Shown piece by piece: positions 46-6,311 of a stretch of DNA of 6,420 nucleotides. Under the pieces are notes generated by a model. The model ran no database searches, was not told the origin of the DNA, and saw only the letters and a list, made by a program, of their open reading frames with translations. The translations under genes and the position numbers were made by a program. This stretch comes from a virus (taxonomy: Duplodnaviria > Heunggongvirae > Uroviricota > Caudoviricetes): IMG/VR virus record IMGVR_UViG_2675903352_000008; one strand, given 5' to 3'. Every line of letters begins with the position of its first letter. Within the stretch, counting starts at the first letter, position 1.

Positions 46-411
46 ATGACTGAACGCATAGAATTTGTTTTGCCTTACCCGCCGACGGTGAATACTTACT
101 GGCGACGTCGTGGCAACACATATTTTGTGTCAAAAGCCGGTGAGCGTTATCGCCGTGATGTGGCGCTAATTGTTCGCCAGCAGCGGCTGAAATTAAACCT
201 GTCCGGAAGGCTGGCGATAAAGATTATTGCAGAGCCACCGGATAAGCGCCGTCGTGACCTGGACAATATCCTGAAAGCACCACTGGATGCGCTGACGCAT
301 GCCGGACTTCTCATAGACGACGAGCAGTTTGATGAAATCAATATTGTGCGCGGTCAGCTCGTTCCTGGTGGGCGGCTGGGGATAAAAATCACAGAACTGG
401 AGTGCGCATGA
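46..411 (+). CDS. rusA: Holliday junction resolvase RusA (crossover junction endodeoxyribonuclease)
   Basis: 121-aa ORF. Size, the RRDLDN acidic motif and overall similarity to E. coli RusA as recalled from memory; sits at the classic position just upstream of Q. Stop TGA 409-411 overlaps the next ATG (ATGA). Confidence 0.85.
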   Translation: MTERIEFVLPYPPTVNTYWRRRGNTYFVSKAGERYRRDVALIVRQQRLKLNLSGRLAIKIIAEPPDKRRRDLDNILKAPLDALTHAGLLIDDEQFDEINIVRGQLVPGGRLGIKITELECA

Positions 412-1097
412 ATAGCCAGTATTTACAGTTTGTGCGTGAGCAGCTCATTATCGCCACCGCTGATTTGAGTGGGGCAACAAAAGGTCAGCTTGAAGCCTGG
501 CAGGAGAATGCCATGTTCGATACAGGGCGTTACAGGCGTAAAAAAATCCGGTACCGGGATGAGGTGACTGGAAAAATGATAACGCGGGATAATCCACCAA
601 TCCCGGGAAAACAATCACTGGCGAAGGGGACGTCAATTCCTCTGGTCAGTCCGGTTGAGTTTTCGACATCATCGTGGCGGCGGGCTGTTCTGTCTCTTGA
701 AGAACATCATAAAGCCTGGTTGTTGTGGTGTTACAGCGGGAATATTTGTTGGGAATATCAGATCGCGATAACACAGTGGGCGTGGAATGAATTTAATACT
801 CAATCCGGTACCAGAAAAATTGCAGGGAAAACGCAGGAACGCCTGAAAAAATTAATCTGGCTGGCGGCGCAGGCAGTAAAAGCAGAACTTTTTGGTGGGG
901 AAGGTTATGAATACCAGGAGCTGGCATTACTGGCGGGAGTGACAACTAAAAACTGGTCCAAAACATTTACTCGTCACTGGGTTGCAATGAAACACATTTT
1001 TTACCGACTGGATAGTGAGGCTTTATTGTTTGTAATGAGAACACGTTCAAAACAAAAGGTGGCATTTTCAAAGCAAAGTGTTGCAAAAGTAGATTGA
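408..1097 (+). CDS. Putative late-gene antiterminator (Q-like), family unassigned
   Basis: 230-aa ORF starting at ATG 408 (GGAG at 399-402, 5-nt spacing), overlapping the rusA stop. Assigned by synteny: immediately after rusA and immediately before a strong promoter, a terminator and the lysis genes. Trp-rich with only 2 Cys, so no lambda-Q-type Cys4 zinc finger. The track start at 402 is an in-frame GTG with no better RBS. Confidence 0.55.
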   Translation: MNSQYLQFVREQLIIATADLSGATKGQLEAWQENAMFDTGRYRRKKIRYRDEVTGKMITRDNPPIPGKQSLAKGTSIPLVSPVEFSTSSWRRAVLSLEEHHKAWLLWCYSGNICWEYQIAITQWAWNEFNTQSGTRKIAGKTQERLKKLIWLAAQAVKAELFGGEGYEYQELALLAGVTTKNWSKTFTRHWVAMKHIFYRLDSEALLFVMRTRSKQKVAFSKQSVAKVD

Positions 1098-1352: not shown

Positions 1353-1428
1353 GGCCCTTTAGCTCAGTGGTGAGAGCGAGCGACTCATAATCGCCAGGTC
1401 GCTGGTTCAAATCCAGCAAGGGCCACCA
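1353..1428 (+). tRNA. tRNA with anticodon CAU, ileX/ileZ-like (tRNA-Ile2 lysidine type, or Met)
   Basis: 76-nt cloverleaf: acceptor GGCCCTT/AAGGGCC, D-loop with GG, anticodon loop CTCATAA, T-loop TTCAAAT, encoded CCA. Strong similarity to E. coli ileX as recalled. Confidence 0.85.
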
Positions 1429-1429
1429 A

Positions 1430-1506
1430 CCGCCACTAGCTCATCAGGAAAGAGCGTCAACCCTTTAAGTTGAGTGTGCGAGGTTCGAGTCCCCGGTGGC
1501 GGTCCA
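1430..1506 (+). tRNA. tRNA-like gene with atypical anticodon loop CCTTTAA (formal anticodon UUU, C at position 33)
   Basis: Perfect 7-bp acceptor stem CCGCCAC/GTGGCGG, D-arm GCTC/GAGC with GG in loop, anticodon stem TCAAC/GTTGA, T-arm CGAGG-TTCGAGT-CCCCG, discriminator T, encoded CCA. Only the anticodon loop is non-canonical. Confidence 0.6.
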
Positions 1507-1508
1507 GT

Positions 1509-1584
<76 letters not shown>

Positions 1585-1587
1585 TAT

Positions 1588-1662
<75 letters not shown>

Positions 1663-1825: not shown

Positions 1826-2389
1826 TTAGTTTTTATTCGCCGTCCATTTACCACAAATTGGTCTGGAGAAGATTGCCAGAATGGCAATAAAGGATATTTC
1901 AATTGAAACAGACCAGCATATATGTCCAATCAGTTCGCTCCAGAATTCATAGCCGTTTAGATTCCATAGCCACCCTCTTTCATGGCCGGGAAGATACGCG
2001 GGAAATCTGAAGCCCAGTGCGGGTATTAAAATACCATGCATGACTAATGTAATAAGAATTCCATATACAGCCCCATACCACATGCGGACTCGTGGAATAA
2101 AAACAGACAGGTATATGTATACAAAGGCAAAAATGAAACTAAAAAGCCAATGATAGAGCATAACAGCTCCGGGAATTGTTACTCCCTGGTAAATGTAATC
2201 CAGCGAGTGTGAATTTATTCCCAGAAAACCCAACCAGGCGTCGATATTCATTGCTGGTGGAGAAATTTCTCCGGCCATTCTTGGGGGCATGTTAGCTTCA
2301 GTTCCTGATTTCACCAGAGAGCTGATCGCGCCACCGACCAGTGTTGCCCAAAGTATGATTTTTAGATTTACACTATTCCATTTACACAT
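1826..2389 (-). CDS. Inner-membrane protein moron, about 4 TM helices, possibly DUF1440/YagU-like
   Basis: 187-aa ORF from ATG 2389..2387 with a strong SD (AGAGG, 6-nt spacing) to TAA at 1826-1828. Four hydrophobic segments. Motifs (VKSGTEANMPPR, SELIGHICWSVSIE) resemble my recollection of YagU/DUF1440, but this is unverified. Transcribed opposite to the late operon. Confidence 0.7.
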   Translation of the reverse strand: MCKWNSVNLKIILWATLVGGAISSLVKSGTEANMPPRMAGEISPPAMNIDAWLGFLGINSHSLDYIYQGVTIPGAVMLYHWLFSFIFAFVYIYLSVFIPRVRMWYGAVYGILITLVMHGILIPALGFRFPAYLPGHERGWLWNLNGYEFWSELIGHICWSVSIEISFIAILAIFSRPICGKWTANKN

Positions 2390-2672
2390 AAACAACCTCT
2401 TGTTTGTTGGGTTGGGGTTATCATACATGACTGCTTGTTGCGATTTTGTATTGTAATGTTTCTGTTTATTGTCTTTTGTGTTGTTTGTCTCTTTAGTGTT
2501 CAGTGTGTGACTATGTACACTCTGTATAGTGGGGGCTCCCGTTGGTGCAGAGAATAACGAAATCTGAAAATAACCGTTTTCAGTTGTGGCGCTCGCAACA
2601 AAAGCGCATGCTGACTGTGCGAAGATAATCTCGCTGTGACGAGTAATCTCGAACGTCATTGTTTTCATTTAT

Positions 2673-3043: not shown

Positions 3044-3065
3044 CGGGCCGCTGGTGGCTTTTTTT
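3044..3065 (+). terminator. G/C-rich element followed by a T7 run immediately upstream of the holin RBS (weak terminator-like)
   Basis: GC-rich GGGGGGGCGGGCCGCTGGTGGC followed by TTTTTTT (3059-3065). Only a short stem can be drawn, so assignment is tentative. Confidence 0.3.
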
Positions 3066-3104
3066 GTTTCCATTACACAGCACCCGCATCAGCGAGGTGG
3101 GGTT

Positions 3105-3320
3105 ATGAAATCCATGGATAAGTTAACAACGGGTGTCGCCTATGGCACCTCAGCAGGTAGTGCCGGGTACTGGTTTTTACAGTTGCTCGATAAAGTCACG
3201 CCCTCACAGTGGGCGGCAATAGGTGTGCTGGGTAGTCTGATATTTGGCTTGCTGACGTATCTGACAAACCTTTATTTCAAGATTAAAGAAGATAAGCGTA
3301 AGGCTGCGAGAGGTGAATAA
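3105..3320 (+). CDS. S: Phage-21-type pinholin/antiholin (S21-like), 71 aa, dual-start motif MKSM
   Basis: SD GAGGTGG upstream of ATG 3105; second in-frame ATG at 3114 gives the Met4 (68-aa) form. Sequence [26 protein letters not shown]...[16 protein letters not shown] closely matches S21 as recalled. The track start at 3054 lacks an RBS. Stop TAA overlaps the R start (TAATG). Confidence 0.9.
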
Positions 3321-3817
3321 TGTCGCCATCATTACGCAAGGCTGTTGCTGCTGCTATTGGTGGTGGGGCTGTTGCCATAGCGTCTGTGCTCATCACTGGT
3401 CCGAGTGGTGACGATGGTCTGGAAGGTGTCAGCTACATACCATACAAAGATATCGTTGGCGTATGGACTGTATGTCACGGACACACCGGAAAAGACATCA
3501 TTCCCGGTAAAACGTATACCGAAGCAGAATGCAAAGCCCTCCTGAATAAAGACCTTGCCACGGTCGCCAGACAAATTAACCCGTACATCAAAGTCGATAT
3601 ACCGGAAACAACGCGCGGCGCTCTTTACTCGTTCGTTTACAACGTGGGTGCTGGTAATTTCAGAACATCGACGCTTCTTCGCAAAATAAACCAGGGCGAT
3701 ATCAAAGGCGCATGTGATCAGCTACGGCGCTGGACATACGCTGGCGGTAAGCAATGGAAAGGACTGATGACTCGCCGTGAGATTGAGCGTGAAGTCTGTT
3801 TATGGGGGCAACAATGA
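3320..3817 (+). CDS. R: SAR (signal-anchor-release) endolysin, T4-lysozyme-type muramidase (R21-like)
   Basis: 165 aa. N-terminal Gly/Ala-rich weakly hydrophobic segment [18 protein letters not shown] typical of a SAR domain, followed by an E-(8)-D-(5)-T catalytic arrangement ([18 protein letters not shown]). Matches R21 as recalled. Start overlaps the S stop. Confidence 0.9.
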
Positions 3818-4281
3818 GCAGAGTTACCGCGATTATCTCCACACTGGTTATCTGCATCATCGTCTGCCTGTCGTTGGCGGTCAATCATTACCGTGATAAT
3901 GCCATCGCCTACAAAGAACAGCGTGATAAAAAAGTCAGTGAGCTGAAGCAGGCGATCGCCACCATCGCTGACATGCAGCAGCGTCAGCGTGATGTTGCTG
4001 CGCTAGATGCAAAGTACTTGAGAGAATTAGCCAATGCGAAAGCTGAAAATGAAACTCTGCGCGCTGATGTTGCCGCTGGTCGTAAGCGCCTGCGGGTCAA
4101 TGCCAGTTGCTCCGCAGCCGTGCGTGAGGCCACCGGCCCCACCCGCGTGGATAATGCAACCAGCCCCCGACTGGCAGACACCGCTGAGCGGGATTATTTC
4201 ACCCTCAGAGAACGGCTGATGACAATGCAAAAGCAACTGGAAGGGGCACAGGAATATATCCGTACCCAGTGTATACCGTGA
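3814..4281 (+). CDS. Rz: Rz i-spanin (inner-membrane spanin subunit)
   Basis: ATG 3814 overlaps the R stop (ATGA) with a G-rich SD upstream. N-terminal TM segment [18 protein letters not shown], then charged coiled-coil-like periplasmic region. The track start at 3802 is an alternative in-frame ATG. Confidence 0.85.
4034..4219 (+). CDS. Rz1: Rz1 o-spanin (outer-membrane lipoprotein), fully nested in Rz in the +1 frame
   Basis: 61 aa: signal peptide with lipobox LVVSAC, proline-rich mature domain ([16 protein letters not shown]), nested inside Rz; the hallmark Rz/Rz1 arrangement. Confidence 0.75.
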
Positions 4282-4746
4282 TGTTTTGTTATAAAGGTGT
4301 TGATGGTTGTGTTAGGGGGGATTTAACAAAAAGCCAGTTCCGGACTTTATAGTGTGCTCAGATCATGGCCAAAAACGATTTCTGTGATAAATATTTTGAA
4401 TATTATTTACAGGTAAATGACGTGGGTCGCATGAATGAAAATATTACAATAGAGTATTAAGTATATGTTCATATTGTATGGGCTGAGAAGGCAAAACACG
4501 GTAATTCCTTATGTTGCTATGATACTTGATTGGCAGAATAGTTATTTGGTCTTGAGTATATAGTCAGCGTTTTTTGTTCAGTAATAGTTCTTTCAGTAAA
4601 AAACAATAAATAGCGTGATTATTTCTGTTTGTTATTTATATTTTTGTTTGTTGTTTTATTGTCTTTCTGTGGAGGGGGGAGTATTGTTCCCTTATTAAGG
4701 GCAGGTAAATTTAGAATGGTAATCTGTAGATAATTGGAGGTCACTT

Positions 4747-5061
4747 ATGCTACATGATCACCTGGCTGAATGTCTGGAGAAAAAAGGACTGTACCGGAGA
4801 GCGGCTGAACGATGGGCAAAAGTGATGGTACAGCTAAGTGATGATCAGAAAAGAAAAATCGCGGCACAGAAACGAGCAGAGTGTTTGCGTAAGGCGCGCC
4901 GGACTTCGGTTGCACCGGTGAATCTGACAGAAATAAAGCAAGCGGTCAACAGACTACATTCTGAGTTGGGAATGGGATTTGAAGAGCGGCGGATATTCCG
5001 ACGATATAAAGGGACAGGAGAACAGAATACGTCCGGAAACGCGCGGTCAAAAAAATGCTAA
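4747..5061 (+). CDS. PerC/Pch-family small transcriptional regulator (prophage moron)
   Basis: 104 aa. SD GGAGG (4736-4740) 6 nt before the ATG. N-terminal motif LEKKGLYRRAAERWAKVM resembles the PerC-family signature as recalled; basic C-terminus. Preceded by about 460 bp of AT-rich DNA. Confidence 0.55.
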   Translation: MLHDHLAECLEKKGLYRRAAERWAKVMVQLSDDQKRKIAAQKRAECLRKARRTSVAPVNLTEIKQAVNRLHSELGMGFEERRIFRRYKGTGEQNTSGNARSKKC

Positions 5062-5096
5062 AAAATATCTGAGAAAGTTATTGCCTGTTACCATAA

Positions 5097-5125
5097 TAAA
5101 AAGCGACTTTAGTAGTCGCTTTTTG
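5097..5125. terminator. Bidirectional rho-independent terminator after the PerC-like gene
   Basis: Perfect stem AGCGACT (5102-5108) / AGTCGCT (5114-5120), loop TTAGT, flanked by an A-run upstream and a T-run downstream. Confidence 0.75.
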
Positions 5126-5564
5126 TGTCATATATACGTCGTTTAAGTAAACCTGTCTGAACAGGTGCTCTGGTCGTGTTTGTTTTTGTTGGGTACAAAT
5201 TGAGAATGTTTTTCATTAATTAGTCTTCTTCAGCAGACTTCAATAATCCACGCTGAAAAAATTCCTGAACCTTTCTGACCAAAAGCGATGTTAATTTGTT
5301 CAATCATCTGGTTTGGAAATCGGATGTTGAGGGCTGTTGTTCTGCGGGTTCTGTTCTTTGATGACATAATGTTGCCCCATATTCAGTGTTGCTGGTTTGT
5401 ATTTTCTGAAGTTGCTTTTACGTTAATTTGATGTGGATCAATTGATGCAATGCCTGCGTCATAATTGATCATTTCTTGTGGTTAGATTGCGTACACACAC
5501 GTTCTGATGAGTCATCATGCAGATGATAACTATTCTCATTTTTTGTGGGTCCTTTCCGGCGATC

Positions 5565-5760
5565 TGACAGGCTACGGGGCGGAAGGCGCGCGGATTTTCG
5601 CTATTTATGAAAATTTTCCGGTTTAAGGCGTTTCCGTTCTTCTTCTCCGTAACGTCATGTTTTTATTTAAAACCCCCCCTGAAAAGAAAGGAAACGACAG
5701 GTGCTGAAAACGGGCTTTTTGGCCTCTGTCGTTTCCTTTCTCTGTTTTTGTCCGTGGAAT
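5565..5760 (+). other. Lambda-type cos site: cosN (variant 12-mer at 5577-5588) plus cosB with Nu1/IHF-binding elements
   Basis: Near base-for-base match to the lambda genome ends as recalled (right end ...CCGGTGATCCGACAGGTTACG, left end GGGCGGCGACCTCGCGGGTTTTCGCTATTTATGAAAATTTTCCGG...). Here the cosN-equivalent reads GGGCGGAAGGCG. Inverted R-element pair GAAAGGAAACGACAG / CTGTCGTTTCCTTTC is conserved. Confidence 0.8.
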
Positions 5761-5765
5761 GAACA

Positions 5766-6311
5766 ATGGAAGTCAACAAAAAGCAGCTGGCTGACATTTT
5801 CGGTGCGAGTATCCGTACCATTCAGAACTGGCAGGAACAGGGAATGCCCGTTCTGCGAGGCGGTGGCAAGGGTAATGAGGTGCTTTATGACTCTGCCGCC
5901 GTCATAAAATGGTATGCCGAAAGGGATGCTGAAATTGAGAACGAAAAGCTGCGCCGGGAGGTTGAAGAACTGCGGCAGGCCAGCGAGACAGATCTCCTGC
6001 CAGGGACTATTGAGTACGAACGCCATCGACTTACGCGTGCGCAGGCCGATGCACAGGAGCTGAAAAATGCCAGAGACTCCGCTGAAGTGGTGGAAACCGC
6101 ATTCTGTACTTTCGTGCTGTCGCGGATCGCAGGTGAAATTGCCAGTATTCTCGACGGGATCCCCCTGTCGGTGCAGCGGCGTTTTCCGGAACTGGAAAAC
6201 CGACATGTTGATTTCCTGAAACGGGATATCATCAAAGCCATGAACAAAGCAGCCGCGCTGGATGAACTGATACCGGGGTTGCTGAGTGAATATATCGAAC
6301 AGTCAGGTTAA
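5766..6311 (+). CDS. nu1: Terminase small subunit Nu1 (lambda-type)
   Basis: 181 aa, nearly identical to lambda gpNu1 as recalled (MEVNKKQLADIFGASIRTIQNWQEQGMPVLRGGGKGNEVLYDSAAVIKWYAERD...), including the N-terminal winged-HTH region. Confidence 0.95.
   Translation: MEVNKKQLADIFGASIRTIQNWQEQGMPVLRGGGKGNEVLYDSAAVIKWYAERDAEIENEKLRREVEELRQASETDLLPGTIEYERHRLTRAQADAQELKNARDSAEVVETAFCTFVLSRIAGEIASILDGIPLSVQRRFPELENRHVDFLKRDIIKAMNKAAALDELIPGLLSEYIEQSG

Follow-up and report, generated by a model that had tools for sequence, protein, structure and literature searches.

The closest described relatives of the gene reported here are the group 1 pch genes of enterohaemorrhagic Escherichia coli (EHEC) O157:H7, which must be present if ler and espA are to be fully expressed and for adherence (PMC6265319). 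We have analysed a stretch of 6,420 nt from a virus record assigned to the Caudoviricetes (IMG/VR IMGVR_UViG_2675903352_000008; the whole stretch is referred to below as the window), and consider it about 90% probable that positions 4282–5127 hold a complete group 1 pch gene, together with the leader and terminator typical of it, as a late-region moron of a lambdoid prophage, where it lies between Rz and cos. The pch gene, its location in prophages, its multiple copies, its action against H-NS and its post-transcriptional control have been known for O157:H7 since 2004, and the novelty which the first-pass annotation of this interval had thought possible does not hold up, because this is textbook EHEC biology: a well-known gene in a well-known place.

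In O157:H7, Pch activates the LEE1 promoter of the LEE (locus of enterocyte effacement) only when this is silenced by H-NS, StpA and Hha, and it does so by relieving the silencing; it lowers H-NS occupancy at LEE1 and at effector loci, boosts the action of Ler elsewhere in the LEE, occupies AT-rich sites in chromatin immunoprecipitation, and co-precipitates with neither H-NS nor Ler (PMC4764244). The transcription of pchA and pchB depends on LrhA in an LrhA–Pch–Ler pathway (PMC13012123), pch transcripts increase in stationary phase (PMC2241611), and an SOS-inducing drug induces the group 1 genes as it does the prophages (PMC6265319). Translation of pchA is auto-inhibited by an internal anti-Shine-Dalgarno (anti-SD) segment of the coding sequence, and this is relieved at low oxygen by the small RNA DicF (PMC7769764, PMC7873438, PMC9438474, PMC7308464), which acts on the anti-SD within the pchA mRNA (PMC7769764, PMC7873438, PMC9438474).

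Two further kinds of protein are relevant. PerC (BfpW) of enteropathogenic E. coli (EPEC) is a member of the same Pfam family which activates the LEE1/ler promoter by counteracting H-NS, with EPEC LEE expression being PerC-dependent only under some conditions (PMC4764244); it is encoded with perA and perB in the per operon of EPEC adherence factor (EAF)-type plasmids, whereas the gene in the window lies in a prophage. PchD and PchE, which represent groups 2 and 3 in O157:H7, are PerC homologues from prophages or prophage-like elements, as here, but they differ from the window protein in size and sequence; they have little effect on the LEE, and PchE represses curli and biofilm formation (PMC6265319).

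The first-pass annotation had proposed that the open reading frame (ORF) between the lysis cassette and cos encodes a PerC/Pch-type prophage regulator, and had said that the lack of a PerC profile match would speak against this. The match was found: the window protein scores 144.4 bits against the Pfam PerC profile (E = 1.3e-42; gathering threshold 22.6 bits) over profile positions 1–89 of 90, and matches PHROG 994 with E = 5.6e-44. An alignment of 40–43 homologues sharing 25–75% identity has five invariant residues (R17, R18, A19, A20 and W23) and seven which are at least 90% conserved (A7, L10, E11, G14, R22, C46 and G75), all of which are present in the window protein, as are the core motif A..LE..G.YRRAA.RW, the conserved cysteine and the MG motif. 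No relative turned up in the PDB, which was searched by sequence using the protein itself as well as a profile of 43 sequences.

The comparison with O157:H7 goes further than family membership. The window protein is 95% identical (99/104 residues) to the pchC product of strain Xuzhou21, the differences being V38I, P54S, S56A, M58V and V83I, and the primers published for the deletion and expression of pchC fit the Xuzhou21 locus without a mismatch. Primers published for pchA, pchB and pchC match the window with 0–3 mismatches (none over the 26 nt of pchABC380R, one over the 33 nt of pchC380F and two over the 50 nt of pchCred50F), and the downstream pchA primer pchAred50R matches 5135–5184 with two mismatches over 50 nt; in contrast, the pchD and pchE primers have no match in the window (at least 7–8 mismatches in ~22 nt). 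Given the identity to pchC and the primer matches, we refer to the gene as a group 1 pch rather than as merely PerC/Pch-like. Like PchA, PchB and PchC of the O157:H7 strains Sakai and EDL933, it encodes 104 residues with 95% identity and shares the Shine-Dalgarno (SD) sequence and start context, the 3' end, the terminator, a ~460 nt AT-rich leader (86–92% identical by block) and a position after Rz and before ylcI and terminase. We take ECs1091 and ECs2182 to be the locus tags of pchA and pchB in O157:H7. That of pchC is ECs2737 (PMC2241611).

The gene is intact, with the strong ribosome-binding site that had been noted on first reading, and the GGAGG is unchanged across all aligned copies. 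Comparisons of the coding sequence with seven other copies gave ratios of non-synonymous to synonymous divergence (dN/dS) of 0.11–0.30, showing that purifying selection acts on it, and an identical protein is recorded from 485 contigs.

On either side of the ORF, the AT-rich, homopolymer-containing DNA and the bidirectional terminator seen on first reading were both upheld. The gap between the end of Rz at 4281 and the next start codon at 4747 is 465 nt, with a GC content of 32.9%, while the lysis cassette has 51.1% and the ORF 48.3%; only 0.2% of 465 nt windows are equally AT-rich, and these overlap the gap. It contains runs of six G (4315–4320 and 4674–4679), six T (4570–4575) and six A (4598–4603). 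The hairpin at 5096–5126 (AAAAAGCGACU-loop-AGUCGCUUUUU) has 13 bp with A5 and T5 on its flanks, and a folding energy of -16.4 kcal/mol on the plus strand (z = -6.3) and -13.8 kcal/mol on the minus strand (z = -5.2), which none of 200 shuffled sequences equalled on either strand. It is kept in all E. coli copies, and calling it bidirectional is fair, since both strands have a T-run and the genes on either side converge on it; a consensus terminator scan did not list it, and at E ≤ 1 Rfam gave over 4282–5127 a match on the terminator only (STnc420, at the chance level of E = 0.66).

In the late region of lambda, morons such as bor are extra genes which benefit the lysogen rather than phage growth. 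Like these, the pch gene sits between conserved late genes and has its own terminator and an atypical base composition (32.9% GC in the leader against 51% in the flanking lysis genes), but it differs from bor as a gene and in orientation and function.

The interval recurs widely in attaching-and-effacing lineages. We searched 5,426 complete E. coli genomes for the whole 846 nt unit, leader included, and found it at 88–98% identity in 673 of them, with a median of three copies per carrier and 15 of the matched places on plasmids. A sample of 60 evenly spaced carrier records was mostly O157:H7, O145:H28, O111, O103:H2 and O55:H7. The order Rz, ~460 nt gap, PerC gene, YlcI/DUF3950 and terminase was present in every chromosomal locus inspected (377323_2f, Xuzhou21, A25, O55:H7 and ML35), and the window has Rz, pch, DUF3950/ylcI, cos and Nu1 in turn, so the place proposed at first, between the lysis cassette and cos, is the one occupied in the O157:H7 and O55:H7 prophages. 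The closest genome, 377323_2f, is an O63:H6 EHEC positive for eae, tir, espA, bfpA and stx2f (PMC8534868).

Beyond E. coli, a scan of species-representative genomes found related copies in Escherichia albertii and one other Escherichia sp., using a single-sequence query which reaches close relatives only. Plasmid-borne PerC-family homologues ~47–48% identical over residues 2–88 were found in Salmonella, Klebsiella, Pantoea and Citrobacter, and PerC of the EAF-type plasmids is presumably among proteins of this kind. Group 1 pch is essentially absent from the collection of deposited phage genomes, where two unannotated fragments were the only match. We note that one copy, on an IncFII plasmid (locus L007, NZ_CP144931.1, 1033–2280), is of the pchA type and retains a Rz fragment and leader, its neighbours being insertion sequence (IS) elements and what is left of two effector genes, nleH and espS, and that the ML35 prophage (locus L008, 1966–2280) has a pchA-type allele identical to it.

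From the likeness to the O157:H7 genes we infer that the window allele would activate LEE1/ler. Published work on O157:H7 has the 104-aa Pch protein binding AT-rich DNA, both at the LEE1/ler promoter and at further loci gained by horizontal transfer, and displacing or loosening the H-NS/StpA/Hha complex, which leads to Ler and then to the LEE type III secretion system. In a lysogen of the window prophage, some promoter within the AT-rich leader would drive transcription, which depends on LrhA in O157, and upon prophage induction pch would also be read as part of the late transcript antiterminated by Q. The SD region probably pairs with a sequence in the coding sequence and so keeps translation low until DicF releases it at low oxygen, and the hairpin at 5096–5126 would end the lysogenic transcript and insulate pch from the convergent DUF3950 gene.

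Several results weigh against this account. Neither a consensus scan for sigma-70 sites (none scoring at least 9/12 on the plus strand) nor a position weight matrix (PWM) scan found a convincing promoter in the leader, the latter giving weak candidates only, at 4323, 4530 and 4659. Silencing of the leader by H-NS is suggested by its AT-richness, but no match to the high-affinity H-NS motif, which we take to be TCGATAAATT, was found in 4282–4746 with up to two mismatches, and matches in the whole window were not above chance. The leader of the window is 86–91% identical to those of the other E. coli copies, whose coding sequences are 95–97% identical with synonymous divergence (dS) of 0.08–0.15; for the O157-type copies, leader identity of 86% compares with 97% for the coding sequence and a dS of ~0.08, so that most of the 465 nt may be unconstrained and the leader, unlike the coding sequence, is conserved no better than neutral or synonymous sites. 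The presence of a LEE in the host of the window prophage is taken from the nearest genome, and the same type of pch gene is present in ML35, a laboratory strain.

The same applies to the proposed translational control. The candidate helix between the SD region and the anti-SD, the latter far 3' of the first five codons, has 92% of cells paired across eight homologues, and one of its pairs (4735:4908) is compensatory, being C-G in O157, U.G in the window and U-A in E. albertii; however, column shuffles equalled the helix in 88 of 500 cases for the covariation measures and in 310 of 500 for the percentage paired, so the helix lacks significance. RNAduplex gives the SD:anti-SD pairing -10.7 kcal/mol in the window versus -14.6 kcal/mol in the O157 pchA-type and pchC copies, which is no better than with shuffled coding sequences (p = 0.67 for the window and 0.12–0.15 for the O157 copies). 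The window allele has C-to-U changes at -12 and +160 which turn two Watson-Crick pairs of the helix into wobble pairs, and its control may therefore differ from that in O157, with weaker auto-inhibition predicted if the helix is real. The first 12 nt of K-12 DicF are predicted by RNAduplex, run without a shuffle control, to pair with the coding sequence at +148..+158 with -11.4 kcal/mol, and the O157 copies have the same site; full-length DicF or longer segments gave p values of ~0.04–0.12 against shuffled targets, so that at the 1% level the DicF predictions did not outdo the shuffled sequences. The minimum-energy fold places the AUG in a local hairpin and the SD in its loop, but this hairpin (4718–4762) is unsupported (z = -1.1, 81% paired, no covariation) and was rejected.

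Taken with the published description, the predicted long-range SD:anti-SD pairing fits better than the local hairpin, and the DicF and anti-SD predictions are consistent with the published model without proving it. The window allele could also rely less on DicF for its translation than O157 pchA does, through the wobble-weakened pairs and the G-rich patch in its leader, though we think this unlikely.

A quite improbable explanation of the leader is that it is a separate element, for example a small RNA, a small protein encoded by the 31-codon ORF at 4366–4461, or a phase-variable switch based on the G6 runs or the 19-nt repeat. It accompanies the gene in all 673 genomes, and its first ~120 nt are ~90% conserved among the E. 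coli copies. Variation is concentrated in the block 4619–4700, which shares 73–78% identity with the copies in O157, O55, ML35 and the plasmid and 96% with that in strain A25, and which contains both the repeat, present with one more unit in 377323_2f, and a patch at 4672–4700 which is G-rich in the window and in A25 (GGAGGGGGGAG) and T-rich in O157, O55 and ML35 (GTTTGTTTTTT). Against this, no Rfam family matched within 4282–4746 when the full window was scanned with a limit of E ≤ 1, and the 14% divergence of the leader exceeds the synonymous divergence of the coding sequence and so gives no sign of constraint. The E. albertii leader is unrelated except for the last ~46 nt before the ATG, which align with 70% identity. 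The 31-codon ORF was rejected as a gene as it has no SD sequence by eye, the alignment shows its stop codon lost in the O157-type copies, and its differences from these, as read from the alignment by eye, are mostly non-synonymous. A repeat search of 4200–5200 found one short two-copy direct repeat only (4401 and 4693), which is probably due to chance.

We regard it as very improbable that pch lacks its own promoter and rides as a Q-dependent late passenger, expressed only on induction and with an effect confined to cells near lysis. The weak promoter candidates noted above would fit this, the stretch from Rz to pch showed no terminator, which means that the gene can be read in the late transcript too, and an SOS-inducing antibiotic strongly induces group 1 pch (PMC6265319). 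However, in O157:H7 under non-inducing conditions LEE expression is lost when the pch genes are deleted, and the transcription of pchA and pchB depends on LrhA (PMC4764244, PMC13012123), pch transcripts rise in stationary phase (PMC2241611), and a dedicated terminator suits an independent transcription unit.

Least probable of all is that the protein belongs to another PerC-family class, PchD/PchE-like or one of the many uncharacterised homologues known from Salmonella, Klebsiella and phages, and targets curli, flagella or metabolism rather than the LEE, for while the family is broad (78 cluster representatives at E < 1e-3, besides the plasmid homologues in other genera), PchE represses curli, PchD has little effect on the LEE (PMC6265319) and the gene occurs in ML35 too, the distant members are only 28–43% identical, the identity to PchC and the primer matches both point to group 1, and the sampled carriers are overwhelmingly of LEE-type serogroups.

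A group 1 pch thus remains our preferred reading. Genes of this group act as master switches, placed upstream of both Ler and the type III secretion system of the LEE, and the presence of one therefore marks a prophage contributing to attaching-and-effacing virulence. Recognising it matters for prophage annotation and host pathotyping but opens no new question, and the points of interest that are left are the allelic differences in the leader and the candidate SD:anti-SD helix, and the structure of the family and its mode of DNA binding.

Table 1. Features of the 6,420 nt window, listed by position.
Feature	Position	Strand	Remarks
RusA	46–411		
Antiterminator Q	402–1097		
Four tRNA genes	1353–1662		Just 3' of Q
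DUF1440/YagU-family inner-membrane protein	1826–2668	-	Between the tRNAs and holin
P21-type holin	3054–3320		
Lysozyme	3320–3817		
Rz spanin gene	3802–4281	+	Pfam Phage_lysis, E = 2.8e-49; upstream boundary of the pch unit
Rz1	4034–4219		Embedded in Rz
AT-rich leader/regulatory region of pch	4282–4746	+	GC 32.9%, lowest in the window
19-nt tandem repeat, 2.3 copies	4619–4660	+	Tandem Repeats Finder; copy number varies
Variable leader patch	4672–4700	+	GGAGGGGGGAG in the window allele, GTTTGTTTTTT in O157 copies (alignment)
Candidate helix, 5' half, AAUUGGAG	4732–4739	+	Would pair with 4904–4911
Shine-Dalgarno GGAGG	4736–4740	+	6 nt before the ATG, read from the sequence
pch, group 1 (pchA/B/C type), 104-aa PerC-family regulator	4747–5061	+	Pfam PF06069
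Best predicted DicF 5'-end pairing site (DicF nt 3–12)	4894–4904	+	Adjoins the candidate anti-SD
Candidate anti-SD CUUCGGUU in the coding sequence	4904–4911	+	Codons 53–55; CUCCGGUU in O157 alleles
Symmetric hairpin terminator, common to pch (+) and the convergent DUF3950 gene (-)	5096–5126	.	
DUF3950/YlcI-YnfO-like small ORF, 45 aa	5230–5367	-	Pfam DUF3950, E = 1.6e-10; convergent with pch
Lambda-like cos region	near 5577		~190 nt upstream of Nu1
Nu1 small terminase	5766–6311	+	Pfam Phage_Nu1, E = 3.3e-100

The window as a whole spans the part of a lambdoid prophage that holds its late-regulatory and lysis genes (Table 1), and over its full length shares 98.7% identity with a prophage in E. 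coli 377323_2f. In the homologous loci the Rz homologues are annotated as 'lysis protein', and a DUF3950/YlcI-type gene is annotated at the equivalent place to the small convergent ORF; the latter has a weak match to NCBIfam YlcI_YnfO_N, and the O157 copies have a longer YlcI/YnfO gene (74 aa) there. The segment 5577–5660 resembles what we take to be the left end of lambda and is mostly near-identical to it, with GGGCGGAAGGCGCGCGG in the cohesive-end segment where the lambda counterpart is presumably GGGCGGCGACCTCGCGG.

The surroundings of pch differ from those in the O157 prophages in having four tRNAs and a YagU-like gene downstream of Q. Stx phages carry tRNAs and stx at the position taken here by the tRNA genes, which have the anticodons CAU, UUU (Lys), UGU (Thr) and UCC (Gly); the CAU tRNA is assigned to Met by ARAGORN and to tRNA-Ile in the annotation of the RefSeq homologue. 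The prophage seems to have a second moron in the DUF1440/YagU gene, and as the homologous locus in RefSeq has a 187-aa product compared to the 280 aa of the listed ORF, the N-terminal ~90 codons are probably untranslated. Finally, a 9-nt unit (ATTTTGCCG) that is perfectly repeated in tandem, in 6.7 copies, at 1125–1184, 3' of the Q stop codon, occupies the region expected for a pR'/qut-type late promoter and is followed by a strong hairpin and T7 terminator at ~1207–1234; as the otherwise near-identical 377323_2f prophage has only 1.7 copies, this is a variable-number repeat.

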